The notes under the pieces: generated by a model
The model's input: the letters and a program-made list of their open reading frames with translations, nothing else
Told to the model about the DNA's origin: nothing
The model's database searches: none
Shown: positions 1,643-46,166 of the stretch, one piece after another
Layout: every line of letters starts with the position of its first letter
Position numbering within the stretch: position 1 is the first letter of the stretch
From: a virus
Taxonomy: Duplodnaviria > Heunggongvirae > Uroviricota > Caudoviricetes
Direction: 5' to 3' (one strand)
Length of the DNA stretch: 64,000 nt
IMG/VR virus record: IMGVR_UViG_2671180747_000017
Position numbers and translations under genes: made by a program

Positions 1643-1675
1643 TTCACGATATTCCATTAATACCATTTCCTGATG

Positions 1676-1700
1676 CCCGGCCATTGTGCCGGGTTTTTTT
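1676..1700 (+). terminator. Rho-independent terminator-like hairpin (CCCGGC-loop-GCCGGG then T7)
   Basis: Read directly: 6-bp GC stem, 6-nt loop, 7 consecutive T; lies between the 421-aa gene stop and the giant gene start. Confidence 0.6.
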
Positions 1701-1711
1701 ATGGAGTCTGT

Positions 1712-4700
1712 ATGGCCTATTCAGAGGAACAGCGTCCTGAGGCGCAACTCGGTAACCAGAATCGTAACAGCCTGAACATTCAGCAACCCGGCGAAACTGA
1801 CAGCTATGAAGCATTTTTCTCTGATCCGAATCGCTGGAAGGATAACAGTACGTCGTTCAGCCTGGGCGATGTATTGCCAACAATGGGTAAAGGTTTCGCC
1901 CAGTCCGTCCGGGGAACAGGGGAAATGGCCCGTGGACTCGGTGATGCGATGATTCAGAGCCCGGTAAAAACAGGGGCGCGTATTTTAAATGAGTTCAGCC
2001 GTATGGGGCTGCCGGGTGTCGCAACTGTGCAGGATATTTTTGCCGGTGGCAGCAGGGGGGCTGATGAGGTCATCGATACCCTGCCTGATGGCAAAAACGC
2101 GGTTACTGATACTGTCGGTAAAGGTCTGAAGGCAACCGGTAAGGCTGTCAGTGATGGTGCTGAAGCCACTGATGAATGGCTGACCGGTAAGATGTCGCCG
2201 GGTGCAGTTCGTGCGCTGAATACGCCGATGACCGAAGGCTATGATGATTCTGCGGTCTGGGTGGCGAAGGGTGTAAACCTGATTGGTGCGCTTGTACCTG
2301 ATATGGTTGCTGGCGGTGTGGCTAAAAAGGTGGGTGATGTCACACTGCGAAAAATGCTGACCGCCGGGCTGGAGAAAAAATACATCGCGGCAGGGATGCA
2401 GCCGGAAAGAGCCACGGCACTGGCAGCAGAAGCTGTCGATAAAAAAATGCCGGATTTATTCCAGGCGGGCCTGATCACCCATTCCACAGCCAGTGCACAG
2501 GGGCAGAGTGCAATGGCGGCAGCAGATGCTGTTCTTAATGCGGATTACTCTGAGCTGGCGCAGTCACCGAAATTTCAGCAGACGTTTTTGTCCATTGACG
2601 CCGACCCGCAGCACGCACAGCTTACTGATCGCCAGAAAATGGATCTGGCAAAAGAGCGTGTTGCCGATGAGGTGCGCGCGCAGCTGGCAACCGATCCTGA
2701 ATTGCTGGCTGTGAATGCCATGGCGGCAAAACTGGGTGACGCACAACTGTTTAATCTGGTGACACGAGGCACAGCGAAGACCGTTAAAAGCGGCATTGTC
2801 AGAAATGCCACGGAACAGGGGGCGATTAATGCGGCGCAGGGCGGCTATTCACGCTATCAGGAAAACACGGCATTGCGTGAGACCGCCGGAATGGATGTGT
2901 CACCGTGGGAGGGCGTGGCTGACGCAACGATCGAAGGTGCAGCCTTTGGTGCTGCGATGGGGGCTCCATCCGGTGCGGTTGCCGGATATCGTGGCAGACG
3001 TCAGGCCGCAGAAGAAGCAGCCATGCGTGATGCTGAAACCGTGCAGCAGGACGACGCAGCCCCGCAACCAGAATCTGTTGATCCGGTGGCGCAGCATCGT
3101 GAATCCATGCAGGGGATGAATCGCGAGCAGCTTCTGGAGCAGTATGCTGATGCGGATATGGCAACAGAGGGGGACGCATCCGCAGCTCATCGCCGGGAAG
3201 CTGCCAGCCAGTTGTTGAATGAACTGGACGAACAGGCGAAGCGACAGGCTGTGATGAATGAGCTGAAGGCGAAGCCGCGTTCTGAACTGCTTGAGGAATA
3301 CCGCAGACTCAGCCAGAAAGAGGAGCGCACCGAGACTGAAGAACAACAGTTTCAGGCAATACGAGAAGTCATTCGCCCACAACAGGAAGTGACGCCGGAA
3401 GCACAGTCACAGCCTGAAAATGCGGAGGATGGTAACGGGAGCATTTACCCGACGGTGCGGTTCCGGGACCCGAATGAAGTCCGCATTGAAATTAACGGGA
3501 ATGGTGCGTCCAGACCAGCGGAACGCATTGAAAAGGTGCGCCCGGACAACCGTTATTTCACGGATGAGAAAAGCGCCATGGGGAGTGATGTTTTCCGTAA
3601 TGCCGCCGCCACCGGCCTGAAACCGTCCGTAGTGAAGAAAGGCGAGACTCAATATGCTGTTGAAATGGATAATCCTGCGTTCTCTGAAGATGTGGCAACG
3701 GAAACCATTAACACCCTGGCTGACGGAGAGCGTATTGCTGATGCTGACCCGATGGAGCAGCCCGCGTTCATGCGTGACCCACGATTCCGTGGTTTCACGG
3801 GGGATGATACGGAGGTACAGGCCCGCCTTGCCCGTGGCAACGTGCCGACGGCAGAGGAGCTTGTACGTTCACAGATGGCTGAAGGTGATGCCGGTCCGAC
3901 AGCACAGGAGTTAACTGAGCGTCCACGCCTGCCCGCTCCCGGCGATATTCATCCCGGACAGGGATATCCGTTACCGGGAGAGGTGGCGCGTACGCCGGAT
4001 GAGAATCAGGCAGGACGTGGTGGTCGTTTTACCACAACCGGTGAGGTTAAGGGCCAGAGTTTCCAGAAAGGACAAGCTCTGGCACCGGAAAACGCCGCTG
4101 GTCGCCAGGGGGAAACACTCGAGGGTGAAATGGTTCGTCGTGGTCTGCCGTCACCGGATGCGCAGAACGCGACAGCACCGGTACGTGAAGGGCTACCGGC
4201 TCCGGACATTACACACAATGTCCGTATGCCTCAGCCTGATCAGCTTCCCCGAACTGTTCGTAACTCATTGCCTGAGCTCGCACAGCAGGCAGAAGTACGT
4301 CGACAGGCCGGAGGAAATCGTGACATCCCGCAGCCTGAGACAATCGCACCTGAATCTGAAACAACAGTCGCTACTGACAGGGAAGCTACCGTGCGCGGAG
4401 GTGAAGTCAGGGGCAAAAAAATTGAAGACTTTGGTGAAGAAATTAAGGGCGCGGCAAAACACCGTTATGCACAGCTTGCTGAAACACTGGGTAAAACGCT
4501 GGAAGACAGGGATTATGTCACGCAACCGCTGAGCAAACTGTTCCCGAAACCGGACTACGCAAAACTGGCGAGCGAAGGGGCTGATGCTGACACCCTGGCA
4601 ATGATAGCGCTGTATCGTAGCGATATTCCGGTGAAGACGAAACACAATACGGCAGGCTGGGGGGAGAGCGTAAAAAAAGTACGACACAGTGTATCGGAAA

Positions 4701-7700
4701 TGCTGAACGGAACGGTCAGCGCGAAACGCCTCGCAGAATGGATGGAAGGCAGAATGCCCTCCCGTTACGCGGACACCTGGCAACTGTTACGCACTCTGCC
4801 ACCCTCACAGATGGACAAGGCTTCTGCTTATCGGGTGGTATCGGGTGTGTATCAGGCGGCAGGAGGGAAGCGTTACGATCCGCCACAGAAACTTTATTCA
4901 CTGCGCAATAAGGACAATAAGGGGAGTAACCTCTTTTTCTCGGAAAGCAGGGATGAATTACTGGCAAAGGCGAAAGTCTGGTTTGCAGAGCAGGAGGAAA
5001 AATCACAGGCGAAAGGTGATGAAAAAACAGCACCGTCTCCGGATGACAAAATCCGCTTTGACGTTTACCGGAATACCCGCAGTGGCGATATTTTTATCGC
5101 TTACGGTAAAAACAAAATGCGGGTGAGAGGTGGCTTTAAGTCAGCCAGTGATGCGCGTAAGTACATTGATTTACATCGTGATGAGCTTGTTCGTCATGTG
5201 AAGGAGATGCGGGAGATTTCGCGTGAGGAGCAGCGCAACGCCACCAACCGCGACCGTACCGGACCAGAACGCCGCAAGGGGGATGTTTCACCGGAGCAGT
5301 TCAGTGATGCGTTTGGTTTTCGTGGTGTGCAGTTTGGTAATTATGTGGAAAGTCCGCGTCGTCAGGCTGATTTGAACCGGGCTTATGACTCGCTGCATGA
5401 CCTGGCTGACGTGCTGAATGTACCGACAAAAGCGCTTTCTCTGAACGGTCGTCTTGGGCTTGCTTTTGGTGCCCGTGGTAAGGGTAAGGCGGCGGCACAC
5501 TATGAGTCAGGTGAGGTGGCAATCAACCTGACAAAAGGTAACGGACCGGGTGCGCTGGCGCACGAATGGTTCCATTCTCTGGATAATTATTTTGGTCGTT
5601 ATGACGTTTCCAGTGACGGGAAAATTACGTCAGGTGGCGACTTTATGACGGAAGCACAGCGTGTCAGGCGCATATTTAAAGACGGCAGGTATGTTGATGC
5701 TGAATATCCGGTACGTCAGGAGGTTTACGACGCTTTTAAAGGTGTGATTCAGGCCATTAAAAACAGTGACATGCCGCGTCGTTCAGCGCTTCTTGATGAG
5801 GTGCGCTCAAAACCGTACTGGTCAACGGATGTTGAAATGGCGGCACGTGCCTTTGAGCGTTATGTTCAGGATAAGGCGCGTATGGCTGGCGTGGAGAATG
5901 ATTATCTGGTCAATATCCGTAAGGCACCTGAGCACAACACAGATAACACCTACGCTTATCCGACGAATGCGGAACTGGATGGCGGTATTCGTGAGGCATT
6001 CGATCACCTGTTCCGCACCCTGAAAACCCGTGAGACGGACAAGGGCGTTGCGTTTTATTCCCGTAAGGGCATGACCCGCACACCTGAAGGTAATCTCATT
6101 TCGGATGTTAACCGTAGTGCGGAAGCCAAAGGCAGCCCGGTCCCGCAGGTTGAAGCGGTTGCCCGTGGCGTGATGAGCGGCATTAAGGACAGTGACCTGA
6201 CGGTCCGTGTGGTGAAGTCACAGAAAGAGGCTGAAGCGCTGGCGGGTGAATCGTTCGACGGTTACGGCAGGGTGCACGCATTCTATCGTCCGGATAAACG
6301 AGAAATTGTCCTGGTGGCGGATAACATCCCTGACGGGCAGACCGTACGCGAGAAGTTGCGTCACGAGATTATCCACCATGCCATGGAGCATGTTGTCACG
6401 CCAGCGGAATATCAGACGATTATCAAAACCGTGCTGAAAACCCGCGACAGTGATAACGCCACCATCCGTGAAGCCTGGCGTAAGGTTGATGCGTCCTATG
6501 GTAAGGAATCACCGGAAGTACAGGCGGGTGAATTTCTGGCACATATGGCGGAGAAACAGCCGAATAAATTCGTGGCGGCATGGGAGCGTGTTGTTGCCCT
6601 GGTCAAAGGGGTACTGCGTCGTACGGGGTTACTGAAGCCGACGGAACTGAACGATATCAGACTTGTTCGCGAGACCATCCGTACGTTAGGCCAGCGTGTG
6701 CGGGAAGGTTACACGCCGCGTGAGGATGGCGTGGGCGCATCGTCTCAGTACTCCCGTAGTGGTAAGCCTGATCCGTTCAAAGTGCCGGAAGGTGAGGGTG
6801 AACGTTATCGCGATGACCTTGCCAGAATGATGAAATCTCTGCGTACCACAGATTTAACGGTAAACATCGGGCGTACGCCGCCGGTATTGCGTCACCTTGG
6901 TGCACCGGATTTGCCGCTGGTTATTTCCCGCGATACTGTGCGGAAGGCCACCAATGGTGTGAAACATGTGGTGCCGATGGATGTTATCGAGAGACTACCG
7001 GAACTGATGCACGATCCGGATGCAATTTACCGCTCAGCGACAGAAAGAAATGCGGTTGTGATGCTGCTTGATGCCGTGGATAAAAATGGTGATCCGGTAG
7101 TGTCTGCGGTGCATATGAAGGCAACCCAAAAACTTCTGGAAGTTAACCGTATTGCTTCTGTTTACGGAACGGAAAACGGGAAAAAACTGAAGAGTATGGA
7201 AACGGCTGGCTTAACATTATACAGGAGAGAAAAACTAAACCCTGATGGTTCTCTGTACAGAGGGCTCCAATTGCCCAAAGATGAGCACTCCCGTCAGGGT
7301 TCTGCGGATAAAATACTCTATCCTGAAGATATTCGCAAGGGGCCGTATTACTCCCGTACCAGCAGTCTGACACCGGAAGAGACAATTGCATCGCGTTTTG
7401 TGCGCCAGATGCAGGATAAATTCCAGGTGCTGAAAGCTGTTCAGGAGAATATCCGTAAAACTGGTGGAAAAATAGACGACAGTAACAACGCTTATATGGC
7501 GGAAGAACTCTTCCACGGGAAGGCGGAAAACGACCTGAACGTGATGAAGGAGCGCTACGTTCAGCCACTGGCTAAATTACTGGCGGACTACAAAATTGCG
7601 CAGGCCGATCTGGATGAGTACCTCTACGCCCGTCACGCGCCGGAACGTAACGCGCATATCGCGAAAATCAACCCGAAAATGCCGGACGGCGGTTCGGGGA

Positions 7701-10093
7701 TGACCAACGCGGAGGCGGCGGAAATCATGCAGCGTGTACGTAACAGCGGCAAACAGGCACAGTATGACCGTCTGGCAGGGATTGTTGACGATATGCTGGC
7801 CCGTCGCCGTGAGCTTATCCGTGAGGCAGGACTGGAAGAGAGCGGCGTGGTGGATGCCTGGCAGAAAGCCTACCGTTACTACGTTCCCCTGAAAGGGCAG
7901 GATGTTGACGGTGTGGTGTCACTGCCACGTACAGGCAAGGGATTCACCATCGGCGGGCGTGAAAGTAAGCAGGCCATGGGGCGCGCATCCCGCGCACAGT
8001 CTCCTTCCACTCAGGCGATACAGGATTTGAGCGAATCACTGATCCGCAATCGCAAAAATGAAGTGGGTAACGCCTTCCTGAAACTGGTACAGGATAATCC
8101 CGACAAGGATTACTGGCAGGTATTCACCGATGACAGACCGGATACCATGCGGACGATTGCAGAGCGCAAGGACAAGGAAACTGGTGAAACCATTCGCGAA
8201 GTTGTCGAACGCCCTGTACCGATGGCAATGATGGCAGACCGGTACTTCACCACCAAAAAGAACGGCAAAACGTACTACATCAAACTCCATGATCCGCGCC
8301 TGATGCGTGCGATGAAGAATATGGGACCGGAAACCAGTAACGCCGTAATCCGCACGCTGGGGAAAGTTAACCGCTTCCTGGCAACGGTGAACACGTCGTA
8401 TAACCCGGAATTCCTGGTCAGTAACTTCATCCGTGACGTACAGACGGCGGTGATGAACCTGAAGGCGGAGCAGGGAAGGAGCGACGGCAAACTGAAAGGG
8501 CTGGATAACTTATCCGCACTGGCTGTGGTGAAAGACAGTCGGTCTGCCATGTCTGCCGTATACGCCAGTCTGCGTGGTAAAACCCTCACGGGCAACGGTG
8601 CGCAGTGGCAGAAGGTGTGGAAAGAGTTTGTTGAGGACGGAGGTAAAACCGGCTGGTTTAACATGGGTGACCTTGAAGGCCAGCAGAAGGAAATGGATCG
8701 CCTTGTATCGCTGGCGAAGGGAGGATGGAAAGGCCAGAGTATCGGTGCATGGAATTCGTTCCTTAACCTTGTCGAGGATGCCAACGGGGCGGTTGAAAAC
8801 GCTCTGCGTCTTTCTGCCTATAAACACGCCCGTGATGCCGGTTTGTCACGCCAGCAGGCGGCGTCTCTTGCCAAAAACATGACGGTGAACTTTAACCGTC
8901 GTGGTGAGCAGGGGGCGCTGATGAACTCGCTGTACATGTTCGCCAACGCCAGTATTCAGGGAACGGCAAATCTGGTGAGAACGCTCGGACATCTTAATGG
9001 TGAGGGACCTTTACTGGAGCGCCTTCGCTGGAAGAATCTGAATGTTCCGCAGAAAATCGCGCTTGCCGCTGTGGGAGCGGGTTATCTGCTTGGCTCGCTT
9101 AACCGCAGCGTGGCGGGTGAGGATGATGACGGGGTTAACTGGTATGACAAAGTACCGTCTCATGTGAAAGAGCGTAACCTCGTCATTATGAAATCGGTGT
9201 TCGGGGGCAAGGCCGGAGAGTACTGGAGTATTCCTCTGCCTTACGGGTACAACGTTTTCTTCCTGCTTGGTCACACAGCCGAAGGGGTGGCAGCGGGCGA
9301 CCTGACCGCTTCACGTGCTGCCGGTAATGTTGTTGGTGGTGTGCTTGGGGCATTCAGTCCTGTGGGCAGTGAAACGTCGGAAACACTGTCCGGGGCATTG
9401 CTGAAAAATGCAGCGCCGACCATTCTGCGTCCGTTTGCGAACCTTGCCATGAATGAAAACTTCATGGGGGCGCAGATTTACCAGGAGAACATGCCGTTTG
9501 GTACACCAAAACCTGACAGCCAGCTGGGAAGACGTTCAACGCCAGAAGCGTACAAGGCGTTTGCATCCTGGCTGAATGCGTTCTCAGGTGGCAGCCAGTA
9601 CCGTCCCGGCGCGGTGGATATCACACCGGAATCGCTGAAATTCTGGATTGACTATATCTCCGGAGGGACAGGGCGCTTCATTTCCAAAACCACGGATGCG
9701 GCGGTGAAATCGCTGAATGGTATTGATATACCGGAACAGCAGGTGCCCTTCCTGGGGAAAATTTCGGGGGAGGTGATGCCGTATGCAGACCAGCAGAAGA
9801 TGTACGACCGGATGACAGAGATTGCGCAGTATCACGCAGAGCTGAAGAGTCTGACCGGTGCAGAAAGAACGGCGTTCATTGACGAGAACAACGGAAAATT
9901 GTCGATGAACGGGCTTATGCAGGATACCCGGAAGAGACTGAAGGATTTGCGTAAACAGCGTGATGCCATTTATGCCGACAGTTCTCTCAGTCTGGCGCAG
10001 CAGGCGGCGATAGTGAAATCGGTAGAGCGGGATATGAAGGTTGCCGTGGATCGCTTTAACCGCGAGTACAACAAAAAAGTGGGAGTGGATTAA
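1712..10093 (+). CDS. Giant phage protein (about 2793 aa) with HExxH zincin-like metallopeptidase motif; polyvalent/virion-associated type protein (function inferred)
   Basis: Single uninterrupted 8.4-kb ORF; ATG at 1712 chosen because the track start 1673 lies inside the upstream terminator hairpin; motif GALAHEWFHSLDNYFG; long Ala/Glu/Gln low-complexity stretches. Confidence 0.8.
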   Translation: MAYSEEQRPEAQLGNQNRNSLNIQQPGETDSYEAFFSDPNRWKDNSTSFSLGDVLPTMGKGFAQSVRGTGEMARGLGDAMIQSPVKTGARILNEFSRMGLPGVATVQDIFAGGSRGADEVIDTLPDGKNAVTDTVGKGLKATGKAVSDGAEATDEWLTGKMSPGAVRALNTPMTEGYDDSAVWVAKGVNLIGALVPDMVAGGVAKKVGDVTLRKMLTAGLEKKYIAAGMQPERATALAAEAVDKKMPDLFQAGLITHSTASAQGQSAMAAADAVLNADYSELAQSPKFQQTFLSIDADPQHAQLTDRQKMDLAKERVADEVRAQLATDPELLAVNAMAAKLGDAQLFNLVTRGTAKTVKSGIVRNATEQGAINAAQGGYSRYQENTALRETAGMDVSPWEGVADATIEGAAFGAAMGAPSGAVAGYRGRRQAAEEAAMRDAETVQQDDAAPQPESVDPVAQHRESMQGMNREQLLEQYADADMATEGDASAAHRREAASQLLNELDEQAKRQAVMNELKAKPRSELLEEYRRLSQKEERTETEEQQFQAIREVIRPQQEVTPEAQSQPENAEDGNGSIYPTVRFRDPNEVRIEINGNGASRPAERIEKVRPDNRYFTDEKSAMGSDVFRNAAATGLKPSVVKKGETQYAVEMDNPAFSEDVATETINTLADGERIADADPMEQPAFMRDPRFRGFTGDDTEVQARLARGNVPTAEELVRSQMAEGDAGPTAQELTERPRLPAPGDIHPGQGYPLPGEVARTPDENQAGRGGRFTTTGEVKGQSFQKGQALAPENAAGRQGETLEGEMVRRGLPSPDAQNATAPVREGLPAPDITHNVRMPQPDQLPRTVRNSLPELAQQAEVRRQAGGNRDIPQPETIAPESETTVATDREATVRGGEVRGKKIEDFGEEIKGAAKHRYAQLAETLGKTLEDRDYVTQPLSKLFPKPDYAKLASEGADADTLAMIALYRSDIPVKTKHNTAGWGESVKKVRHSVSEMLNGTVSAKRLAEWMEGRMPSRYADTWQLLRTLPPSQMDKASAYRVVSGVYQAAGGKRYDPPQKLYSLRNKDNKGSNLFFSESRDELLAKAKVWFAEQEEKSQAKGDEKTAPSPDDKIRFDVYRNTRSGDIFIAYGKNKMRVRGGFKSASDARKYIDLHRDELVRHVKEMREISREEQRNATNRDRTGPERRKGDVSPEQFSDAFGFRGVQFGNYVESPRRQADLNRAYDSLHDLADVLNVPTKALSLNGRLGLAFGARGKGKAAAHYESGEVAINLTKGNGPGALAHEWFHSLDNYFGRYDVSSDGKITSGGDFMTEAQRVRRIFKDGRYVDAEYPVRQEVYDAFKGVIQAIKNSDMPRRSALLDEVRSKPYWSTDVEMAARAFERYVQDKARMAGVENDYLVNIRKAPEHNTDNTYAYPTNAELDGGIREAFDHLFRTLKTRETDKGVAFYSRKGMTRTPEGNLISDVNRSAEAKGSPVPQVEAVARGVMSGIKDSDLTVRVVKSQKEAEALAGESFDGYGRVHAFYRPDKREIVLVADNIPDGQTVREKLRHEIIHHAMEHVVTPAEYQTIIKTVLKTRDSDNATIREAWRKVDASYGKESPEVQAGEFLAHMAEKQPNKFVAAWERVVALVKGVLRRTGLLKPTELNDIRLVRETIRTLGQRVREGYTPREDGVGASSQYSRSGKPDPFKVPEGEGERYRDDLARMMKSLRTTDLTVNIGRTPPVLRHLGAPDLPLVISRDTVRKATNGVKHVVPMDVIERLPELMHDPDAIYRSATERNAVVMLLDAVDKNGDPVVSAVHMKATQKLLEVNRIASVYGTENGKKLKSMETAGLTLYRREKLNPDGSLYRGLQLPKDEHSRQGSADKILYPEDIRKGPYYSRTSSLTPEETIASRFVRQMQDKFQVLKAVQENIRKTGGKIDDSNNAYMAEELFHGKAENDLNVMKERYVQPLAKLLADYKIAQADLDEYLYARHAPERNAHIAKINPKMPDGGSGMTNAEAAEIMQRVRNSGKQAQYDRLAGIVDDMLARRRELIREAGLEESGVVDAWQKAYRYYVPLKGQDVDGVVSLPRTGKGFTIGGRESKQAMGRASRAQSPSTQAIQDLSESLIRNRKNEVGNAFLKLVQDNPDKDYWQVFTDDRPDTMRTIAERKDKETGETIREVVERPVPMAMMADRYFTTKKNGKTYYIKLHDPRLMRAMKNMGPETSNAVIRTLGKVNRFLATVNTSYNPEFLVSNFIRDVQTAVMNLKAEQGRSDGKLKGLDNLSALAVVKDSRSAMSAVYASLRGKTLTGNGAQWQKVWKEFVEDGGKTGWFNMGDLEGQQKEMDRLVSLAKGGWKGQSIGAWNSFLNLVEDANGAVENALRLSAYKHARDAGLSRQQAASLAKNMTVNFNRRGEQGALMNSLYMFANASIQGTANLVRTLGHLNGEGPLLERLRWKNLNVPQKIALAAVGAGYLLGSLNRSVAGEDDDGVNWYDKVPSHVKERNLVIMKSVFGGKAGEYWSIPLPYGYNVFFLLGHTAEGVAAGDLTASRAAGNVVGGVLGAFSPVGSETSETLSGALLKNAAPTILRPFANLAMNENFMGAQIYQENMPFGTPKPDSQLGRRSTPEAYKAFASWLNAFSGGSQYRPGAVDITPESLKFWIDYISGGTGRFISKTTDAAVKSLNGIDIPEQQVPFLGKISGEVMPYADQQKMYDRMTEIAQYHAELKSLTGAERTAFIDENNGKLSMNGLMQDTRKRLKDLRKQRDAIYADSSLSLAQQAAIVKSVERDMKVAVDRFNREYNKKVGVD

Positions 10094-32028: not shown

Positions 32029-33309
32029 TTAATTTTTCATTGATTCGTTATGGGGCATGGTTGGGGCAAACTCGCTTAACTGTGTATTTAACAAAGCTAC
32101 CTGTGCATTATTGTTTTCAGACATCCATTTTCCGTATACCTGAAATACCATTTGCGCATCTGCATGGCCCATCTGGTTTGCTATAAATGCCGGGTTAGCA
32201 CCAGCTGTCAGCGACCAGCAGGCATAAGTATGTCTCGACTGATATGATTTTCGATGGCGGAGTCCGGCACGTTTTATCGCTGCGTCCCACATCTGCCTTA
32301 TTGAGTCAACGGTAAAATGGTCACCATAATTTTTTACTCTCGCTGACACTTCAGGTTGAAAAACAAAGGTGCATTTTTGTTTTTCTGTTCTGCCATACTC
32401 TCTGAGGTGAACATCAATGATATGCTCTTTGCTCAGTCTCGTTAATGTCATCTGACTCCGGAGAGCGTCGATTGCTGGCTTAATAAGATGAATGGCCCGA
32501 TTGGTTCCCGCCTGTGTTTTTGGTACCGTGAAACGGTCTTTTGCTAAATTTCTCCTGATCATCATTGTTCCATTTTTCAGATCTATGTCCTCCCATCCAA
32601 GTGCACACAGCTCACCAGGGCGAACGCCAGTATAAACAGAAACACACCATAAATTTTTTGCTTGCTGATTTCTGCACGCATCGATAAGACGGATAAATTC
32701 CTCCCGCGAAAGAGGATCCGGAATGGTTCTTGATTCCTTTAATGGCGAGATCCCCTTAAACGGATTATCTGCCAGGTAACCGTTATCAACACCAAACTGG
32801 AACACGGCGTTAAGATTTGTCATGTAATTATTTACAGTTACAGCCGATCTCCCTGGTTGTGTAACAATATAGTTACTTTTGGGGATCTGGTATCCAGTCA
32901 GTAGCTCTTTACGAACCTCCAGTAATTTTTCTTTATTAATCGATGAGGCAAGATTTTTTTCACCGATTATGCTCAGGATATTTTTGATGACGGCACGGTA
33001 TGTGTTGAGTGATGTTTTGGCGACTTCAGTTTCTTTCAGTGCCAGAAATTTTTCAGCCAGTTCTTTTATGGTTAAATCTTGTCGGGCCTCACCAAATTTT
33101 TCCAGATTGCGTGAGGAGGGAAACTGTTTTGCATAGTCGAAAACACCAGTTTTTATTGCGTAACAAACAGAGGAGCGTAGTTCACCTGCAACGCGCCTGT
33201 TTTTTGCTGTGTCAGGAACCCCCAGATTTTCCCTGACTCTTACGCCTTTATAAACAAACCAGATACGTAATTTCCCTCCATGGTTTTCCACGCCTGTCGG
33301 ATATTTCAT
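32029..33309 (-). CDS. int: Prophage integrase (lambda Int family tyrosine recombinase)
   Basis: N-terminal arm-binding-like MKYPTGVENHGGKLRIWFVYKG; C-terminal SRHTYACW and VYGKW catalytic motifs. Confidence 0.9.
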   Translation of the reverse strand: MKYPTGVENHGGKLRIWFVYKGVRVRENLGVPDTAKNRRVAGELRSSVCYAIKTGVFDYAKQFPSSRNLEKFGEARQDLTIKELAEKFLALKETEVAKTSLNTYRAVIKNILSIIGEKNLASSINKEKLLEVRKELLTGYQIPKSNYIVTQPGRSAVTVNNYMTNLNAVFQFGVDNGYLADNPFKGISPLKESRTIPDPLSREEFIRLIDACRNQQAKNLWCVSVYTGVRPGELCALGWEDIDLKNGTMMIRRNLAKDRFTVPKTQAGTNRAIHLIKPAIDALRSQMTLTRLSKEHIIDVHLREYGRTEKQKCTFVFQPEVSARVKNYGDHFTVDSIRQMWDAAIKRAGLRHRKSYQSRHTYACWSLTAGANPAFIANQMGHADAQMVFQVYGKWMSENNNAQVALLNTQLSEFAPTMPHNESMKN

Positions 33310-33343
33310 TTCAACTTCTCTCATTAGTTAGTGTGGCTTTTAG

Positions 33344-37955: not shown

Positions 37956-38020
37956 AGTATTGGCGCAAGATAAAGCCAATACATTGAAATGTAAGGCTTT
38001 AAAATTTTGTGAAGGGATGA

Positions 38021-38428
38021 TTATTGATGCTTGTTGCGTTTGCGAGCCTCTAATAGCTCGGTGAACAGGCGATTAAAATTCTCAACGCGGGCGCGGAGTT
38101 CGCTGAGTTGTGCTTGTTGCTCTGATTTAGGAAGTGCGCGATACAAACGCAGCATCTCTAACTCATCTTCCGATAAGTCTAAGGCACTATCGAGTGAAAC
38201 AGGGGGAGCTGGTGTTTTGTCCTCGTCGCCAAACAGTATCCAGGTTGGTGAACATTGCAATACCTCGGCGAGGCGATGCAAATTTTGCCCGCGCGGGGCT
38301 GTATGGTCACTTTCCCATAATGAAATTGATGAGCCAGATACGCCAGCAGCTTTGCTTAAACCGTTTTGACTTAAGCCTACCTGCTTACGTCTTTCTCTAA
38401 TGCGTTGACCTAAAGTTTTCTCGTTCAT
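38021..38428 (-). CDS. DicA/RacR-like HTH (XRE-family) prophage repressor
   Basis: N-terminal HTH and C-terminal ...LQCSPTWILFGDEDK... pattern as in DicA; divergent from a Cro-like gene. Confidence 0.8.
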   Translation of the reverse strand: MNEKTLGQRIRERRKQVGLSQNGLSKAAGVSGSSISLWESDHTAPRGQNLHRLAEVLQCSPTWILFGDEDKTPAPPVSLDSALDLSEDELEMLRLYRALPKSEQQAQLSELRARVENFNRLFTELLEARKRNKHQ

Positions 38429-38449
38429 ATTTAGATATCTTAATAACCC

Positions 38450-38479
38450 TTGACTTGAGATTCCTTGAGTGATTAGTAT
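38450..38479 (+). promoter_or_regulatory. Sigma70-like promoter for the Cro/YdaS-like gene (-35 TTGACT, 18-bp spacer, -10 TAGTAT)
   Basis: Read directly in the divergent intergenic region. Confidence 0.4.
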
Positions 38480-38491
38480 TGAGAAAACTCA
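38480..38491. promoter_or_regulatory. Operator-like interrupted palindrome TGAGAAAACTCA, copy 2
   Basis: Immediately downstream of the putative -10. Confidence 0.4.
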
Positions 38492-38505
38492 ATATTGGAG
38501 GTGCG

Positions 38506-38733
38506 ATGTTTAAATCAGACGTAATTAATTTTTACGGTACGAAAGCCAAAGTAGCGAAAGCTGCTGGCGTTGACCCATCTGCTGTTTCTCAATGGCAAGA
38601 GCTGGTTCCTGAAGGTCGCGCGATGCGTCTACAGGAGGCATCTGGCGGCGAGCTTCAGTATGATCCCAAGGTTTATGACGAATATCGTAAGACGAAGCGG
38701 GCGGGGCGGTTGAACAATGAAAATCACTCCTGA
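38506..38733 (+). CDS. Cro/YdaS-like small HTH protein
   Basis: ATG 38506 with GGAGG RBS; contains VAKAAGVDPSAVSQWQ HTH-like segment. Confidence 0.7.
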   Translation: MFKSDVINFYGTKAKVAKAAGVDPSAVSQWQELVPEGRAMRLQEASGGELQYDPKVYDEYRKTKRAGRLNNENHS

Positions 38734-39238
38734 ACAGGCTCGTGAGGCTCTGGATGCCTGGATATGTCGACCAGGAATGACACAGGAGCAGGCGACGATA
38801 TTAATCACTGAAGCATTCTGGGCTTTGAAAGAGCGCCCGAACATCGATGTTCAGCGTGTCACAGATGAAGGTGGCGCGGTTGATCAGCGAGCGCTTGGCG
38901 TTAATCGAGTGAAGATATTCGAACGCTGGAAGGCTATCGACACCAGGGATAAGCGTGAAAAGTTCACGGCGCTAGTGCCTGCAATTATGGAGGCTATCCG
39001 GATTAATGATTTCAGGTTGTATCGTGAAATTAGTGACGGAAAAAGCATCACGTACATGATCGCCGGGTTAAACAAAGAATATGGCGATGTGGTGGAGTCC
39101 GGACTGCTTTTTGCTGATCCTGCCGTAGTGGATCGTGAAACTGACGAACTTATAGAAAAAGCAATTGCTTTCAAACTTGCGTATCGACAGCAATACCAAC
39201 AAAAAGCTGGATGGAATTATGAGCCTTCTTTTTGCTGA
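38717..39238 (+). CDS. YdaT-like prophage protein
   Basis: ORF track; position after the Cro-like gene as in Rac (racR-ydaS-ydaT). Confidence 0.6.
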   Translation: MKITPEQAREALDAWICRPGMTQEQATILITEAFWALKERPNIDVQRVTDEGGAVDQRALGVNRVKIFERWKAIDTRDKREKFTALVPAIMEAIRINDFRLYREISDGKSITYMIAGLNKEYGDVVESGLLFADPAVVDRETDELIEKAIAFKLAYRQQYQQKAGWNYEPSFC

Positions 39239-40184
39239 ACGCCCACTGGTTATAAACACACAGCTTGCGATGAAGATTGGCTTAAATGAAGCCATTGTGT
39301 TGCAGCAGTTGCATTACTGGTTGAGAGATACCAATTCCGGTATGGAATGTGATGGTGTTCGCTGGATTTACAACACAACGGAACAATGGCTGGAACAGTT
39401 CCCATTCTGGTCAGAGTCAACGTTAAAGCGCGCGTTTGCAAGTCTGAAAACGCTGGGGCTTTTGCGTTGTGAAAAGCTCAATAAATCAAAGCGCGATATG
39501 ACCAATTTCTACACGATCAACTACGGGAGCGAGCTTTTAGATGATGGCAAATTGAGCGAATCCATCGGTTCAAAATGCGCCGCTCCATCAGGTCAAAATG
39601 ACACGATGGAAGAGGTCAAAATGAAACGCTCCATTGGTTCAAAACGATCCAATGTCATCGGGTCAAAATGGCCTGATGATCTTACAGAGAATACAACAGA
39701 GATTACTACAGAGAATAAAAACACTTTTCGTCCGGAAGCTTCGCAACCGGACCCGCAGACGACTGAACAGGATTTTTTAACCCGGAACTCCGACGCGGTT
39801 GTGTTTAGTGCGAAAAAACGCCAGTGGGGTAGCAGGGAGGATTTGGCGTGTGCGCAGTGGATCTGGGGGCGGATCGTGGGCCTCTACGAACAGGCAGCCA
39901 GTGATGATGGCGAGATCATGAGACCAAAAGAGCCTAACTGGACTGTCTGGGCCAATGACGTGCGCACAATGCGGATGCTGGATGGCAGAAGCCACAGACA
40001 AATTTGCGAAATGTTTGGTCGGGTTCAGCGAGATCCATTCTGGGTAAAAAACATCATGAGCCCGTCAAAGCTCCGCGAAAAATGGGACGAACTGGTCATC
40101 CGCCTGGGACGTTCACCTGTACAGCGTTGTGTTAATCATATTTCTGAACCGGATACAGAAATTCCGCCTGGTTTCAGAGGATAA
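39219..40184 (+). CDS. Putative replication initiation protein (YdaU/O-like)
   Basis: Position after immunity genes; N-terminal HTH-like LAMKIGLNEAIVLQQLHYWL; start 39219 vs 39270 uncertain. Confidence 0.55.
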   Translation: MSLLFAERPLVINTQLAMKIGLNEAIVLQQLHYWLRDTNSGMECDGVRWIYNTTEQWLEQFPFWSESTLKRAFASLKTLGLLRCEKLNKSKRDMTNFYTINYGSELLDDGKLSESIGSKCAAPSGQNDTMEEVKMKRSIGSKRSNVIGSKWPDDLTENTTEITTENKNTFRPEASQPDPQTTEQDFLTRNSDAVVFSAKKRQWGSREDLACAQWIWGRIVGLYEQAASDDGEIMRPKEPNWTVWANDVRTMRMLDGRSHRQICEMFGRVQRDPFWVKNIMSPSKLREKWDELVIRLGRSPVQRCVNHISEPDTEIPPGFRG

Positions 40185-40224
40185 GTGTTGATTTCAGGTC
40201 ATGAGGTAATTTTAAGGGGGACTT

Positions 40225-40647
40225 GTGGCAAAAGTTTTTACACAAGAAGAGCGGGAAAAAATTAAAGGGCAGGTGGTGGAACTCGTGCGCCAGAGCGGTC
40301 GTGAGACGTTACGGCAACTGGAAGCTAAAACAGGTGCGACTAGATATCTGATGAGCGTTCTTGCCAGAGAGCAGGTAGCCAGTGGCGATGTATACAACTC
40401 CGGCTACGGGTTATTCCCGTCTGAACAGGCGCGTAAGGACTGGCAAAACGCCCGCAAAAAACTCTCGAGGGCAAAGGTGAAGAAACCTGCTGTGGTTGAT
40501 CCGGACCTTATCTGGTCATTACCTGACGGAGAAATACGCCGCTACGACAGTCGTCTAAACATAATCTGTCGCGAGTGCCGGAAGAGCGAAGTTATGCAGC
40601 GTGTTCTGACGTTTTATCAGGGGAATTATCGGGAGGTGATGCTGTGA
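40225..40647 (+). CDS. Hypothetical prophage protein (140 aa)
   Basis: GTG start with AAGGGGG RBS; basic protein. Confidence 0.5.
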   Translation: MAKVFTQEEREKIKGQVVELVRQSGRETLRQLEAKTGATRYLMSVLAREQVASGDVYNSGYGLFPSEQARKDWQNARKKLSRAKVKKPAVVDPDLIWSLPDGEIRRYDSRLNIICRECRKSEVMQRVLTFYQGNYREVML

Positions 40648-40877
40648 GTACATCGGCTACCATTCTCGACATGTGCTGTGGCAGTCGCATGCTCTGGTTC
40701 GATAAGAATGACGAATGGTCGATATTTAGCGATATCAGGAAAGAGGAACATTCGCTATGTGATGGACGTCACCCGATTATTAATCCCGACATTATCGCTG
40801 ATTTTCGTGCGCTGCCGTGGTTGTCTGCTTTGCATCAAAAGCAGACATTACCAGATTTAGACATCTGTTTCCGATAG
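40644..40877 (+). CDS. Small hypothetical protein (77 aa), GTG start overlapping the upstream stop
   Basis: GTGA start/stop overlap; [19 protein letters not shown]; identity unknown. Confidence 0.35.
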
Positions 40878-40909
40878 CCCGTTCTGATGCTACACTTTTT
40901 GCTATTTTC

Positions 40910-41596
40910 ATGAACCTCATAAACACATTTATGACTGTTGCTGATTTCAAACGCCCCAAATTGGAGCTCCCAAACGGGGCAAAAAAACTATTACTGCACT
41001 CTTGCTGTGCTCCATGTTCCGGTGAAGTGATGGAGGCGCTTCAGGCCTCGGGAATCGACTACACCATCTTTTTCTACAACCCGAACATTCATCCTCAGAA
41101 AGAGTATTTAATTCGTAAGGATGAGAATATTCGCTTTGCTAAACAACACGGCGTGCCATTTATTGATGCTGATTACGACACAGACAACTGGTTTGAGCGA
41201 GCCAAAGGAATGGAATGGGAGCCTGAACGAGGGATCCGTTGTACCATGTGTTTTGACATGCGTTTTGAGCGGACTGCACTGTATGCCGCTGAAAATGGTT
41301 TCAGTGTGATCAGTAGCTCACTGGGCATTTCACGCTGGAAAAATATGCAGCAGGTTAACGACTGTGGACGGCGAGCCGTCGCGCATTATCCGGGCATGGT
41401 GTACTGGGATTATAACTGGCGAAAACAGGGCGGCTCTTCCCGCATGATTGAAATCAGCAAGCGCGAACAATTCTATCAGCAGGAATATTGTGGCTGCGTG
41501 TATTCACTGCGCGATACCAATCTACACCGCAAATCTCAGGGACGCCCTCTAATCAAAATTGGTCAACTGCACTACGGTAAGGAAGGACAGGAATGA
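40910..41596 (+). CDS. QueH-like (DUF208, epoxyqueuosine-reductase family) protein
   Basis: Hallmark [14 protein letters not shown]...FFYNPNIHP motif; start ATG 40910 or 40931. Confidence 0.7.
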
Positions 41597-41675
41597 TTTT
41601 ATATTATGCCAACGGAGCGTAGCAGTGTTTCTATATATAGTACGCCTACCTTAATTTTCAAATAATCATGATTAA

Positions 41676-41710
41676 TGAGCAGGTCATCAGTGCAAGCAAT
41701 GACCTGCTCA
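41676..41710 (+). terminator. 12-bp perfect inverted repeat hairpin (TGAGCAGGTCAT ... ATGACCTGCTCA)
   Basis: Read directly about 80 bp after the QueH-like stop; weak U-tract. Confidence 0.45.
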
Positions 41711-42208
41711 TCTTGTTGAAATTAGAGGAAATCTTGCAGCCATGATATGGCTTAAAATAACGTTTGATTATTTTACCTGCTGTTTGTCCCTGGTTTAAAG
41801 TCGGTTGTCTGATTTGATTACGCGCAACTGACGCTTACGTATTGAAGTAACGAGCACGAAGACACATATTTATCAGTGCCTGTATACGTCAAGAGCAGGA
41901 GATTTATGTGCTGGTTCTCAAATGCACGCTGGCTATTGTGGCTGTAATGGCAATTTATTGTCTTGTTATTGTTCTTATGGATCACCTTTCTGATTGATTT
42001 CATATTGGCGAGGTAACGGTAGTTAAGTAGAATGGCTGCGGGTGCTTGAGGCTATCTGCCTCGGGCATGAACACCAACGGCAGATAGAGAAAAGCCCCAG
42101 TTAACATTACGCGTCCTGCAAGACGCTTAACATTAATCTGAGGCCAATTTCATGCTAGACACATGTAGGTTAGCCTCTTACGTGCCGAAAGGCAAGGAGA
42201 AGCAGGCT

Positions 42209-42364
42209 ATGAAGCAGCAAAAGGCGATGTTAATCGCCCTGATCGTCATCTGTTTAACCGTCATAGTGACGGCACTGGTAACGAGGAAAGACCTCTGCGA
42301 GGTACGAATCCGAACCGGCCAGACGGAGGTCGCTGTCTTCACAGCTTACGAACCTGAGGAGTAA
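42209..42364 (+). CDS. hokD: Hok/Gef-family membrane toxin
   Basis: MKQQKAMLIALIVICLTVIVTALVTRKDLCEVRIRTGQTEVAVFTAYEPEE recognised as a Hok-family toxin; internal start of the track ORF. Confidence 0.9.
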   Translation: MKQQKAMLIALIVICLTVIVTALVTRKDLCEVRIRTGQTEVAVFTAYEPEE

Positions 42365-42434
42365 GAGACCCGGCGAGGGAGAAATCCCTCGCCACCTCTG
42401 ATGTGGCAGGCATCCTCAACGCACCCGCACTTAA

Positions 42435-42459
42435 CCCGCTTCGGCGGGTTTTTGTTTTT
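42435..42459 (+). terminator. Rho-independent terminator after hok (CCCGC-TTCG-GCGGG plus T-run)
   Basis: Read directly. Confidence 0.75.
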
Positions 42460-42580
42460 ATTTTCAACGCGTTTGAAGTTCTGGACGGTGCCGGAATAGA
42501 ATCAAAAATACTTAAGTAGCGCGCAGGGATAAGAGGGATGGTCCCTTAAAGGGGAGAGCTAATTATCCGGAAGGATTCTG

Positions 42581-42832
42581 ATGATGAACATCGAAGAACT
42601 GCGTAAAATTTTTTGTGAAGATGGCCTCTATGCTGTGTGCGTTGAAAATGGAAACATTGTTAGTCATTACCGCATTCTGTGTTTGCGAAAGAATGGGGCT
42701 GCGTTAATTAATTTTGTGGATGCTCGGGTCACGGACGGATTTATCTTGCGCGAAGGTGAGTTTGTCACTTCATTACAGGCACTGAAAGAGATCGGAATAA
42801 AAGCAGGCTTTTCAGCTTTTGCAGAAGAATAA
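42581..42832 (+). CDS. rem: Rem-like small prophage protein
   Basis: 83-aa MMNIEELRKIFCEDGLYAVCVENG... recalled as Qin Rem; synteny hok-rem-ydfU-Q. Confidence 0.65.
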   Translation: MMNIEELRKIFCEDGLYAVCVENGNIVSHYRILCLRKNGAALINFVDARVTDGFILREGEFVTSLQALKEIGIKAGFSAFAEE

Positions 42833-42898
42833 ACTCATCTACAATCTTGCGCGGGGCTGAACTCCCGCTGAGTAACACCGTGCCACCGGAGAAAACCG

Positions 42899-43177
42899 AT
42901 GGCACGCAACGTAAAATATTACAATTCTGATAATTCGCCCGTTCTTGTCTGCACGCACGAGCGGTATTCTCACGCATTCAAGTCTGAATGGTTCCAACAC
43001 CCTCCATGCACTGAAGAGCAGGCTGAATGGATAATTCAGTGTTACCGCAGGCGCGGATACGAGGTTAAGAAAGCCCTTAGCCTCGACTACCGTCACTGGA
43101 TAATCTCAGTCAGATTGCCTTACTCCGAACGCCCACCACGTGCGTCCCGCACTTTCCAGCAACGGATCTGGAGGTAA
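42899..43177 (+). CDS. Hypothetical prophage protein (92 aa)
   Basis: ORF track; immediately upstream of the DUF968 gene. Confidence 0.45.
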   Translation: MARNVKYYNSDNSPVLVCTHERYSHAFKSEWFQHPPCTEEQAEWIIQCYRRRGYEVKKALSLDYRHWIISVRLPYSERPPRASRTFQQRIWR

Positions 43178-43178
43178 C

Positions 43179-44228
43179 GTGCGGGTATTACTTAGACCTG
43201 TTCTGGTGCCTGAGCTTGGGCTGGTGGTCCTTAAGCCGGGCCGTGAATCCATACAGATATTTCATAATCCTCGAGTGCTGGTGGAACCGGAACCAAAAAG
43301 CATGCGTAATCTGCCATCCGGAGTCGTTCCTGCCGTTCGCCAGCCGCTGGCGGAAGACAAAACATTGCTGCCGTTTTTTAGTAACGAACGGGTGATTCGT
43401 GCTGCTGGCGGCGTTGGCGCATTGTCTGACTGGCTATTACGTCATGTTACATCCTGCCAGTGGCCTAATGGCGATTACCATCACTCTGAAACAGTCATTC
43501 ACCGTTATGGTACCGGCGCAATGGTGTTGTGTTGGCACTGCGACAACCAACTGCGTGACCAGACATCGGAATCACTGGATCTGCTTGCTCAACAAAATCT
43601 GACAGCATGGGTGATTGACGTCATCCGTCACGCAATAAGCGGTACGCAGGAACGTGAATTATCTCTGGCTGAATTATCCTGGTGGGCGGTCCGCAATCAG
43701 GTGGCGGACGCGCTACCGGAAGCGGTATTACGTCGTTCGCTGGGATTACCAGCGGAAAAAATCTGCTCGGTGTACCGCGAGAGCGACATCGTACCGGGAG
43801 AGCAGACCGCCACCAGCATATTGAAACAACGCACAAAAAATCTTGCACCGTTGCCTTACGCCCACCAGCAACAAAAACTACCACAGGAAAAGACGGTGGT
43901 AAGCATCACCGTTGATCCAGAGTCTCCGGAATCTTTCATGAAGCTGCCTAAACGTCGCCGCTGGGTTAAGGAGAAATACACACGTTGGGTTAAGACACAG
44001 CCGTGTGCTTGCTGCGGTATGCCAGCCGACGATCCGCATCATCTGATTGGTCACGGGCAGGGCGGAATGGGAACAAAAGCACATGATCTCTTTGTGTTGC
44101 CTTTGTGCAGAAAGCATCACAACGAGCTGCATAGGGATACAGTGGCATTTGAAGAGAAGTATGGCTCCCAACTGGAGCTGATATTTCGTTTTATCGATCG
44201 CGCGCTGGCAATTGGCGTACTGGCGTAA
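43179..44228 (+). CDS. ydfU: DUF968-family prophage protein (YdfU-like), C-terminal HNH/zinc-finger-like motif
   Basis: GTG start with GGAGG RBS; CACCGMPADDPHHLIGHGQGGMGTKAHDLFVLPLCRKHHNELH. Confidence 0.7.
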   Translation: MRVLLRPVLVPELGLVVLKPGRESIQIFHNPRVLVEPEPKSMRNLPSGVVPAVRQPLAEDKTLLPFFSNERVIRAAGGVGALSDWLLRHVTSCQWPNGDYHHSETVIHRYGTGAMVLCWHCDNQLRDQTSESLDLLAQQNLTAWVIDVIRHAISGTQERELSLAELSWWAVRNQVADALPEAVLRRSLGLPAEKICSVYRESDIVPGEQTATSILKQRTKNLAPLPYAHQQQKLPQEKTVVSITVDPESPESFMKLPKRRRWVKEKYTRWVKTQPCACCGMPADDPHHLIGHGQGGMGTKAHDLFVLPLCRKHHNELHRDTVAFEEKYGSQLELIFRFIDRALAIGVLA

Positions 44229-44241
44229 GTGGAGAACGAGC

Positions 44242-44994
44242 ATGAACCTTGAAGCCTTACCAAAATATTACTCCCCAAAATCTCCAAAATTGAGCGATGA
44301 CTCTCCAGCGACAGGCACCGGTTGTTTAACAATTACGGATGTAATGGCAGCGCAGGGGATGGTGCAGTCGAAAGCACCACTTGGGTTGGCCTTATTTCTG
44401 GCAAAAGTTGGTGTTCAGGACCCTCAGTTTGCGATTGAAGGCCTGCTAAATTACGCGATGGCACTGGATAACCCGACATTGAACAAATTGAGTGAAGAAA
44501 TCCGGTTACAGATTATTCCTTACCTCGTGAGTTTTGCCTTTGCTGATTACTCCAGGTCTGCGGCAAGTAAGGCTCGCTGTGAGCATTGTTCAGGTACGGG
44601 ATTTTATAATGTATTGCGCGAAGTGGTGAAACACTACAGACGCGGGGAATCTGTAATCAAGGAAGAATGGGTGAAGGAACTATGTCAGCATTGCCATGGT
44701 AAGGGCGAAGTCAGCACAGCGTGCAGAGGGTGTAAGGGTAAAGGGATTGTTCTGGATGAAAAAAGAACCCGGTTTCATGGCGTACCGGTATATAAGATTT
44801 GTGGGCGTTGTAATGGAAACCGGTTTAGTCGTTTACCGACCACGCTGGCACGACGTCATGTCCAGAAGCTGGTACCAGACCTGACCGATTATCAGTGGTA
44901 TAAGGGGTATGCGGACGTCATTGATAAACTGGTAACAAAGTGCTGGCAGGAAGAAGCATACGCGGAAGCGCAATTGAGGAAGGTGACGAGATAA
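44242..44994 (+). CDS. Late-gene antiterminator Q
   Basis: Zn-binding CEHCSGTG...CQHCHGKG...CRGCKGKG; upstream of the lysis cassette. Confidence 0.85.
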
Positions 44995-45103
44995 ATGATT
45001 TTTGCTGAAGATGGCGACATGATGTTTGCATTTTTCAAAAAACATGGATAAGATTTTCTCAACGATGGGCTTTGTGTATCCGACGTTTAGAAAAAAGTAG
45101 AAA

Positions 45104-45125
45104 ACCCGCTGATAAGCGGGTTTTT
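45104..45125 (+). terminator. tR'-like rho-independent terminator downstream of Q
   Basis: ACCCGCT-GATA-AGCGGGT stem then TTTTT, about 110 bp after the Q stop. Confidence 0.7.
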
Positions 45126-45669
45126 GTGCTTTAAATGGGGCAATAGAGATATTGAATCTCATCCCGGGATAAACATTGGGAGTTGAAGGTCCACGCGAAC
45201 CATTTATCCGGCAAAATTCCACGCGTAATCCTGTGGTAATTTCTTCTGCATCTCGAAGATTGAGAGCTGAAACGTGAAGCTGGGCATCGATACGCCATCG
45301 GATGGGAATATAAGACCTTTGCTGCTTTTGTAGTCAAAGTTTTTGACAATTCCTGTCATTTTAGGGGACAGAAAAACTCCTTAATACTGATAACCTGGTG
45401 CACCATACACACGTTCCTGGAGAAAACTACTTTGTTGATAGGGTTGAAGGTGTCTGGATGTCTAAAATAAACATTGCTTCATATGTTCAACTATGAGTTA
45501 ATGACTGCGTCGGTTTGAAGAACAGACGATATACGAAGTAGTTTACTAAAGCAGTTCTCATTTCAGGTGTTATTCACTTATTCCTTCTTTGAGTCTCTCC
45601 AATTAAGTACGAAGTCGTTTCTGTTATGCAAACCATTTATGCCGAAAGGCTCAAGTTAAGGAATGTAGA

Positions 45670-45885
45670 ATGTCAAATAAAATGACTGGTTTAGTAAAAT
45701 GGTTTAACGCTGATAAAGGTTTCGGCTTTATTTCTCCTGTTGATGGTAGTAAAGATGTGTTTGTGCATTTTTCTGCGATTCAGAATGATAATTATCGAAC
45801 CTTATTTGAAGGTCAAAAGGTTACCTTCTCTATAGAGAGTGGTGCTAAAGGTCCTGCAGCAGTAAATGTCATCATTACTGATTAA
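45670..45885 (+). CDS. cspB: Cold-shock protein (CspA family)
   Basis: [23 protein letters not shown]...VFVHFSAI canonical CSD; Qin-like position after Q. Confidence 0.8.
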
Positions 45886-46166
45886 AATTCATCGCTCGTC
45901 TGTATACGATAACGAAGAAGGCTGATGCCTGAGTAGAGATACGGACAGAGTAGTGAATATTGGATTTCTTTAATAAAAATTAAGGAGGTCCAATACATGA
46001 AACAATGGCCAGCATATTTGGCAAAATCTTAATCAGGAAAAGTATGCTAACCATTGTGGTGAAGTGCAGGTTTGCTGCATGAATAGTTTTACAGCAGAAG
46101 CTAACTGCTGGCATGGCAAAACAAAGTGCGTAAGTGGATGACTCCCACAAAAAGCACCACAATCTC

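Follow-up and report, generated by a model that had tools for sequence, protein, structure and literature searches.

The window, by which we mean the whole stretch of 64,000 nucleotides analysed here, is a segment of an E. coli chromosome carrying a Qin-like lambdoid prophage that extends beyond the window end. The prophage integrase lies on the minus strand at 32029-33324, and the prophage genes follow the order cI-like repressor (minus strand), cro, YdaT/cII-like gene, O-like replication gene, DUF977/Ren-like gene, methyltransferase remnant, queH, a 375-nt insert, sok/hokD, rem, DUF968 (NinG-like) gene and Q antiterminator. The queH gene therefore sits in the early-right operon, flanked on one side by the replication module and on the other by the genes from hokD to Q, in agreement with the nin-like placement given in a preliminary description of this DNA. 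The prophage also contains several csp paralogues, as Qin does, and at 45509-45932, ahead of its cspB-like cold-shock gene, the cspA thermoregulator 5' leader is matched over its full length (Rfam RF01766, 159 bits). Elsewhere in the window there is a second, unrelated prophage remnant beside ynfE/ynfF, whose 2806-aa ORF at 1673-10093 is annotated in a matching genome as an LPD38 domain-containing protein; the spacing between this remnant and the queH prophage differs by ~6.7 kb from that in strain S19-651, so that the window must come from a relative of this strain and not from the strain itself.

The ORF initially assigned to queH spans 40910-41596 on the plus strand, and both motifs that had been quoted for it are present in its translation. 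Using Pfam, PGAP, PDB, Foldseek and dN/dS, we describe the coding sequence as 40931-41596 on the plus strand, encoding an epoxyqueuosine reductase QueH of 221 aa plus stop. The Pfam profile PF02677 (QueH) matches the 221-aa protein over profile positions 1-174 of 175 with an E-value of 1.9e-65 and a score of 220.7 bits, the cut-off of the profile being 23.5 bits, so that the match is far beyond chance. The HMM confirmation that the preliminary description had proposed is thus a full-length one, and its assignment of the gene to the QueH family stands on profile, fold and motifs alike: the gene is a member of this family. The NCBIfam library gave no match to the protein at E-values up to 0.01 despite the PGAP name QueH, indicating that this name must rest on another type of evidence.

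In a sequence search, the QueH chains of T. maritima in the PDB matched the window protein at an E-value of 5.6e-22, with 31% identity to the T. maritima enzyme. We modelled the protein with AlphaFold2 from 26 aligned relatives (mean pLDDT 75, pTM 0.76), and the top five Foldseek matches of the model in the PDB were all T. maritima QueH structures (7lc5, 7lc7, 9d86, 9deu and 9dco), each with a probability of 1.00 and with target-normalised TM scores of 0.79-0.82; the next folds, TtuA and LarE, scored below 0.4. Furthermore, C25, C26, C104, C107, C187 and C189 align with C9, C10, C87, C90, C169 and C171 of T. maritima, and these six cysteines, putative ligands of the metal centre, are invariant in the 26 relatives, as is the YCGCVYS motif. 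At the position of T. maritima Asp13, the residue changed in the D13N mutant (PDB 9dco), the window protein has Cys29, within the motif CCAPC. The same cysteine occurs in all 25 close relatives, including all close chromosomal orthologues, and CCAPC is the usual state in QueH homologues from Staphylococcus, Listeria, gut metagenomes and Acinetobacter, which makes it a common state of the family and no peculiarity of the prophage. Given this homology, the window QueH is likely to be active in E. coli.

The start codon is almost certainly the ATG at 40931 and not the ATG at 40910, 21 nt upstream, from which the gene had originally been read. PGAP/RefSeq places the start at 40931, and the N-termini of chromosomal QueH orthologues align with a protein begun at that position. 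The differences between prophage alleles point the same way: within 40910-40930, 5 of 21 nt differ and all 5 changes would be non-synonymous, compared with 36 synonymous and 7 non-synonymous differences over the 666-nt coding sequence. The in-frame upstream ATG and its 7 codons (40910-40930, plus strand) are therefore probably part of a non-coding 5' leader, as both the allele differences and the orthologue N-termini suggest.

Upstream of this leader we identified the sequence TGCTACACT at 40888-40896 (plus strand), which resembles an extended -10 element and, judging from its conservation across species, may be a promoter belonging to queH itself. It lies 34 nt upstream of the start codon, its first base being 43 nt before the ATG. 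A nearly identical arrangement is found on bacterial chromosomes, where TGCTACAAT occurs at -43 from the queH ATG in Scandinavium and Kluyvera and TGCTACACT at -44 in Enterobacter, while four further genomes have TGCTA[TA]A[TA]T variants at -37 to -43 and others have one-off variants; the DNA upstream of queH is otherwise not alignable between the prophage and those chromosomes. By our own estimate, about 0.15 matches to such a -10 motif would be expected by chance in this interval over 79 sequences. Since the element is found at the same offset as in the chromosomal genes, queH was probably captured together with its own promoter, and we infer that TGCTACACT is this native promoter. On the strength of the conserved motif, queH would be expressed in the lysogen from this candidate. 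A consensus sigma-70 scan called no promoter upstream of or next to queH, and we attribute its silence on TGCTACACT to a weak -35.

There is no clear Shine-Dalgarno sequence before queH, the consensus scan found no intrinsic terminator next to the gene and none is clear after it, and the haplotype present in the window has a 13-bp hairpin downstream of queH (41675-41711) without a T run. A riboswitch, for example for preQ1, or another known RNA upstream of queH was considered and rejected, as the only matches in an Rfam scan of 38000-46000 were sok, the leader of cspA and noise below the threshold.

The two neighbours of queH that remain constant are the DUF977/Ren-like gene upstream (40225-40647, plus strand; Pfam DUF977, E 6.5e-29; phrog_142, ‘Ren-like exclusion protein’) and, as seen from PGAP and synteny, the hokD toxin gene downstream (42209-42364, plus strand). 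Indeed, the order DUF977, queH, hokD is kept almost without exception in 80 IMG/VR loci, among which the surrounding immunity and replication modules vary. A sok antisense RNA match at 42040-42214 (plus strand; Rfam RF01794, 115 bits, E 2e-26) makes up, with hokD, a complete hok/sok-type type I toxin-antitoxin locus. A sub-threshold isrK-like match (E 0.022) follows hokD at 42373-42454.

Comparison of prophages revealed two haplotypes of the queH region, which share homology from ~40817 (~115 nt ahead of the ATG) to a point immediately beyond the end of the gene. The stretch at 40817-40930 (plus strand), common to both alleles in alignments with O157 and ST131 prophages, represents the left end of a queH cassette. 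The window-type haplotype has a methyltransferase remnant before queH and the 375-nt insert after it, and the two always occur together; this allele is found at identities of at least 99% in 62 complete E. coli genomes. The commoner haplotype, ~93% identical, lacks both remnant and insert and was found in 920 genomes, among them ST131 and some O157:H7, O111 and O103 strains; at the O157 and ST131 loci the hok/sok region comes directly after the queH stop codon.

The remnant (40644-40829, plus strand) comprises the N-terminal 62 aa of a class I SAM-dependent methyltransferase of the DNA type, annotated by PGAP as ‘incomplete, missing C-terminus’. It is cut at ~40817, exactly where homology to the other haplotype starts, and full-length relatives were detected by tblastn in Stx2c, Klebsiella, Erwinia and Salmonella phages. 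The O157 and ST131 loci lack the 375-nt insert (41600-41974), which contains an inverted repeat with perfectly matching 13-bp arms (41675-41687 and 41699-41711), and a doubtful 61-aa ORF lies at the insert on the minus strand (41818-42003). Some O157:H7, O111 and O103 prophages have a Dcm-type cytosine methyltransferase and an NgoMIV-family restriction endonuclease directly downstream of queH, a pair that occupies the place of the hokD coding region (E. coli O157:H7 Z1768, locus L003, 7872-9882). Among O157, this restriction-modification-linked variant of queH occurs only in lineages other than Sakai/EDL933.

The two alleles also allowed us to assess selection on the gene. The window and O157/ST131 alleles differ at 6.5% of nucleotides with a dN/dS of 0.04, and queH is intact in 985 of 995 carrier genomes (coverage of at least 80%), which argues for purifying selection on the QueH protein within prophages. 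Together with a slot that is kept across mosaic prophages with different immunity and replication modules, these observations speak against a decaying gene. They leave little room for the explanation that queH is a neutral passenger, picked up by illegitimate recombination, unused and hitchhiking with the hok/sok addiction module, an explanation that could draw on the tight linkage to hokD/sok, the redundancy with queG and the weak ribosome-binding site, but that we regard as quite improbable.

The gene looks as if it originated from a bacterial chromosome, with another member of the Enterobacteriaceae as the source. Outside Escherichia, the nearest relatives of the prophage QueH are chromosomal (Scandinavium 92%, Kluyvera 90%, Enterobacter 89-90% and Erwinia 86% identity), and the proteins of Providencia, Proteus and Photorhabdus are about 80-87% identical. 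In Erwinia, queH lies between purL and a sensor kinase, an ordinary neighbourhood, and among 80 species-representative queH loci prophage neighbours were found only in E. albertii. Thus, a housekeeping queH was apparently acquired by an Escherichia phage.

The presence of such a gene in a prophage had been called unexpected, a view that has to be tempered. We found queH in 995 of 5426 complete E. coli genomes (18%), nearly always as a single chromosomal copy and in the same prophage slot, and its RefSeq name is already ‘epoxyqueuosine reductase QueH’. IMG/VR contains 189 contigs with queH, and each of the two alleles has been recorded from ~1000 contigs or more. One isolated phage, HannyBb, carries the gene at 99.8% DNA identity, annotated as ‘hypothetical protein’. 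In PHROGs the family is phrog_3217, ‘unknown function’, with a profile that begins at residue 34, an internal Met, so that calls made from the phage side omit the CCAPC motif. Our literature search found no paper discussing queH on E. coli prophages; as far as searched, queH on E. coli prophages is common, yet essentially undiscussed.

Other records labelled as phage and matching QueH are unverified metagenome fragments or mislabelled chromosome and were not counted as phage carriage. One of them, ‘Acinetobacter phage MD-2021a’ (CAKLQH020000001.1, 328 kb; locus L176), is a bacterial chromosome in which the neighbours of the gene include soxR, tadA, cynX and gltC. Its QueH is 78% identical and bears the annotation ‘putative prophage protein’, which was probably copied over from the gene of the E. 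coli prophages.

The description of queH as a lone gene proved correct, as the prophage annotation shows no second gene for queuosine or 7-deazaguanine, and the remaining hypothetical proteins in it are small (PGAP), with the exception of the O-like replication protein. This isolation leaves two further explanations unsupported. According to the first, which develops the ‘diverged function’ suggested in the preliminary description, the enzyme would act on a substrate other than oQ-tRNA, or, through the modification state of the anticodon loop, would alter the sensitivity of the cell to other phages or to anticodon nucleases of the colicin E5 type. Colicin E5 cuts exactly those tRNAs that bear Q, and the region is rich in exclusion and addiction genes, with the Ren-like DUF977 gene, hok/sok and, adjoining queH in O157, the NgoMIV-type restriction-modification pair. 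However, the protein is 86-92% identical to housekeeping chromosomal orthologues, with every conserved residue, the cysteines included, unchanged and under the low dN/dS given above, and it has no conserved partner gene except hokD. In addition, PADLOC matched neither QueH nor the small proteins beside it to any defence family at E-values up to 0.01, and we consider a diverged or defensive function very improbable.

The second explanation would make QueH a member of a phage 7-deazaguanine pathway that modifies DNA and protects it from restriction. There is a general precedent in phages that use queuosine-pathway enzymes on DNA (PMC6884629), but the annotated 45-kb prophage has no DpdA, Tgt-like transglycosylase, FolE, QueD, QueE, QueC or QueF, and no such genes are present in the 17 kb of HannyBb that we inspected. 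Moreover, QueH acts after QueA, on tRNA-bound oQ, and Hutinet et al. (2019) found no homologue of QueA, QueG or QueH in the viruses that they surveyed (PMC6884629). A role in DNA modification is thus close to excluded.

On the host side, queG is present in all 5426 complete E. coli genomes and hence in every carrier of queH, which makes the prophage gene a second enzyme for one reaction. E. coli is unable to synthesise cobalamin de novo. queH genes reportedly complement an E. coli queG mutant and restore Q, as Zallot and colleagues are said to have described in 2017 together with the co-occurrence of QueG and QueH in Acinetobacter baylyi; this work and that of Li in 2021 are said to provide family-level evidence that QueH converts oQ-tRNA to Q-tRNA without cobalamin. 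Both enzymes of the pair can be placed in a wider context. QueG is a cobalamin/[4Fe-4S] enzyme (PMC5175355), and the title of a 1988 paper by Frey et al., cited in the same source, describes the step from oQ to Q in E. coli as a cobamide-dependent reduction. The full queuosine pathway is present in E. coli (PMC9508795), with Tgt and QueA making oQ-tRNA. QueG and QueH are non-orthologous enzymes for one step, and both occur in S. pyogenes and S. suis (PMC12632869). In S. aureus, the coexistence of QueG (cobalamin) and QueH (iron) has been read as cofactor-dependent redundancy, and the different expression of the two genes as an adaptation to cofactor supply (PMC13443448). As the host QueG needs cobalamin, a duplicate that is independent of it has an obvious use. 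The role of queH, at first described as unclear, can in this way be narrowed to a cobalamin-free duplicate of the QueG step, a role that we infer.

The preliminary description had also raised the possibility of ‘translational tuning’. Here, queH would be expressed from pR after induction, as a delayed-early gene, and would complete Q on host tRNAs for better decoding of the late genes of the phage, any benefit to the lysogen being incidental. The orientation of the gene fits, in that queH points the same way as the early-right operon at each of the 80 IMG/VR loci and a scan of the plus strand found no terminator-like site between the DUF977 gene and queH. Codon usage, on the other hand, offers no support: NAU/(NAU+NAC) is 0.58 in the early and 0.60 in the late genes of the prophage and 0.61 in a sample of host genes, and such similar shares indicate no special dependence of the phage on Q. 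The promoter-like element inherited from chromosomal queH has also been retained, and a difference between oQ and Q in decoding is not documented in the literature searched. We therefore find it rather unlikely that queH primarily serves phage translation in this way, although such a role would be compatible with the main explanation, namely a cobalamin-independent completion of Q.

We propose the following scenario for this main explanation. A chromosomal queH gene from elsewhere in the Enterobacteriaceae would have been captured with ~100 nt of upstream DNA including the extended -10 element. It would now be passed on as a moron by Qin-like lambdoid prophages of Escherichia, in its constant place between the DUF977 gene and hokD/sok. 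Its product would be an iron-sulfur, cobalamin-independent enzyme reducing oQ to Q at position 34 of tRNA-Asp, -Asn, -His and -Tyr. The host would provide the oQ-tRNA substrate and, through QueG, a cobalamin-requiring route for the same step, so that when B12 is scarce the lysogen could finish Q-tRNA by means of the prophage QueH. The phage might be served as well after induction, when queH would be read through from pR. We assign a probability of roughly 0.6 to this reading of queH as a captured moron encoding a working QueH that frees the step from oQ to Q from B12. Within it, enzymatic activity in E. coli would follow from homology, transcription in the lysogen from the proposed promoter, and a B12-sparing benefit from the cofactor requirement of QueG; that prophage queH improves fitness is conjecture. 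A more far-reaching formulation, in which Qin-like prophages bring a B12-independent QueH with a promoter of its own and lysogeny thereby converts host tRNA modification, Q being completed regardless of available cobalamin in roughly a fifth of E. coli strains, is one that we put forward tentatively, as possible but somewhat doubtful.

Since the enzyme is of a known kind and RefSeq already gives the gene its proper name, we do not describe a new kind of system. Compared with the chromosomal QueH (DUF208, PF02677, COG1636) of Enterobacter, Kluyvera, Scandinavium, Erwinia, Providencia and Proteus, the prophage protein has the same length, fold and cysteine motifs, and with the chromosomal genes of Enterobacteriaceae it shares, besides 86-92% identity, the upstream -10 element; the difference is that it resides on a temperate phage and not among core chromosomal genes, in a host that already has QueG. 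Relative to T. maritima QueH (7lc5), it has the cysteine in place of Asp13 that most of the family members examined also have. By homology, it would carry out the same reaction as E. coli QueG, oQ34 to Q34 on tRNA, but the two proteins are not homologous and it is QueG that needs cobalamin. S. aureus, S. pyogenes and S. suis likewise have a redundant QueG/QueH pair with different cofactors; there, however, both genes are chromosomal, whereas queH of E. coli is borne by lysogeny and varies among strains.

Similarities also exist to the morons of lambdoid phages (lom, bor, cargo of the nin region), in that queH is one non-phage gene placed within the early-right operon, beside a hok/sok module, and has variable flanks and a putative promoter. 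In contrast to those morons, the cargo here is a tRNA-modification enzyme and not a surface, toxin or exclusion protein, its promoter is putative, and no terminator-like site was called for it. The phage 7-deazaguanine clusters (DpdA with FolE, QueD, QueE and QueC) belong to the same metabolic pathway family, but their defining genes are absent here and QueH stands at the tRNA-specific end of the pathway. What we consider mildly novel is the carrier, a family of temperate phages whose conserved cargo includes a queuosine enzyme specific to tRNA and strain-variable in E. coli. On the phage side, it has gone unrecognised both in PHROGs and in the annotation of HannyBb.

A family of temperate phages carries the final step in making queuosine, the one specific to tRNA, in a species whose own enzyme needs a vitamin that it cannot make. 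If the B12-sparing role is true, the Q/oQ status of E. coli tRNA would depend on prophage content and growth medium, which would be relevant wherever K-12 and clinical strains are compared for Q-dependent translation, biofilm or virulence, and tRNA modification would join the traits changed by lysogeny. If conversion takes place, the decoding of NAU/NAC codons would shift in B12-poor niches, including in ST131 and some O157:H7, O111 and O103 lineages, and Q-linked traits of E. coli such as biofilm formation, virulence and the response to metal and oxidative stress would shift with it. Furthermore, queH would then belong to a class of phage auxiliary genes that act on the epitranscriptome, which the 2019 survey of viral deazaguanine genes reported as absent (PMC6884629).
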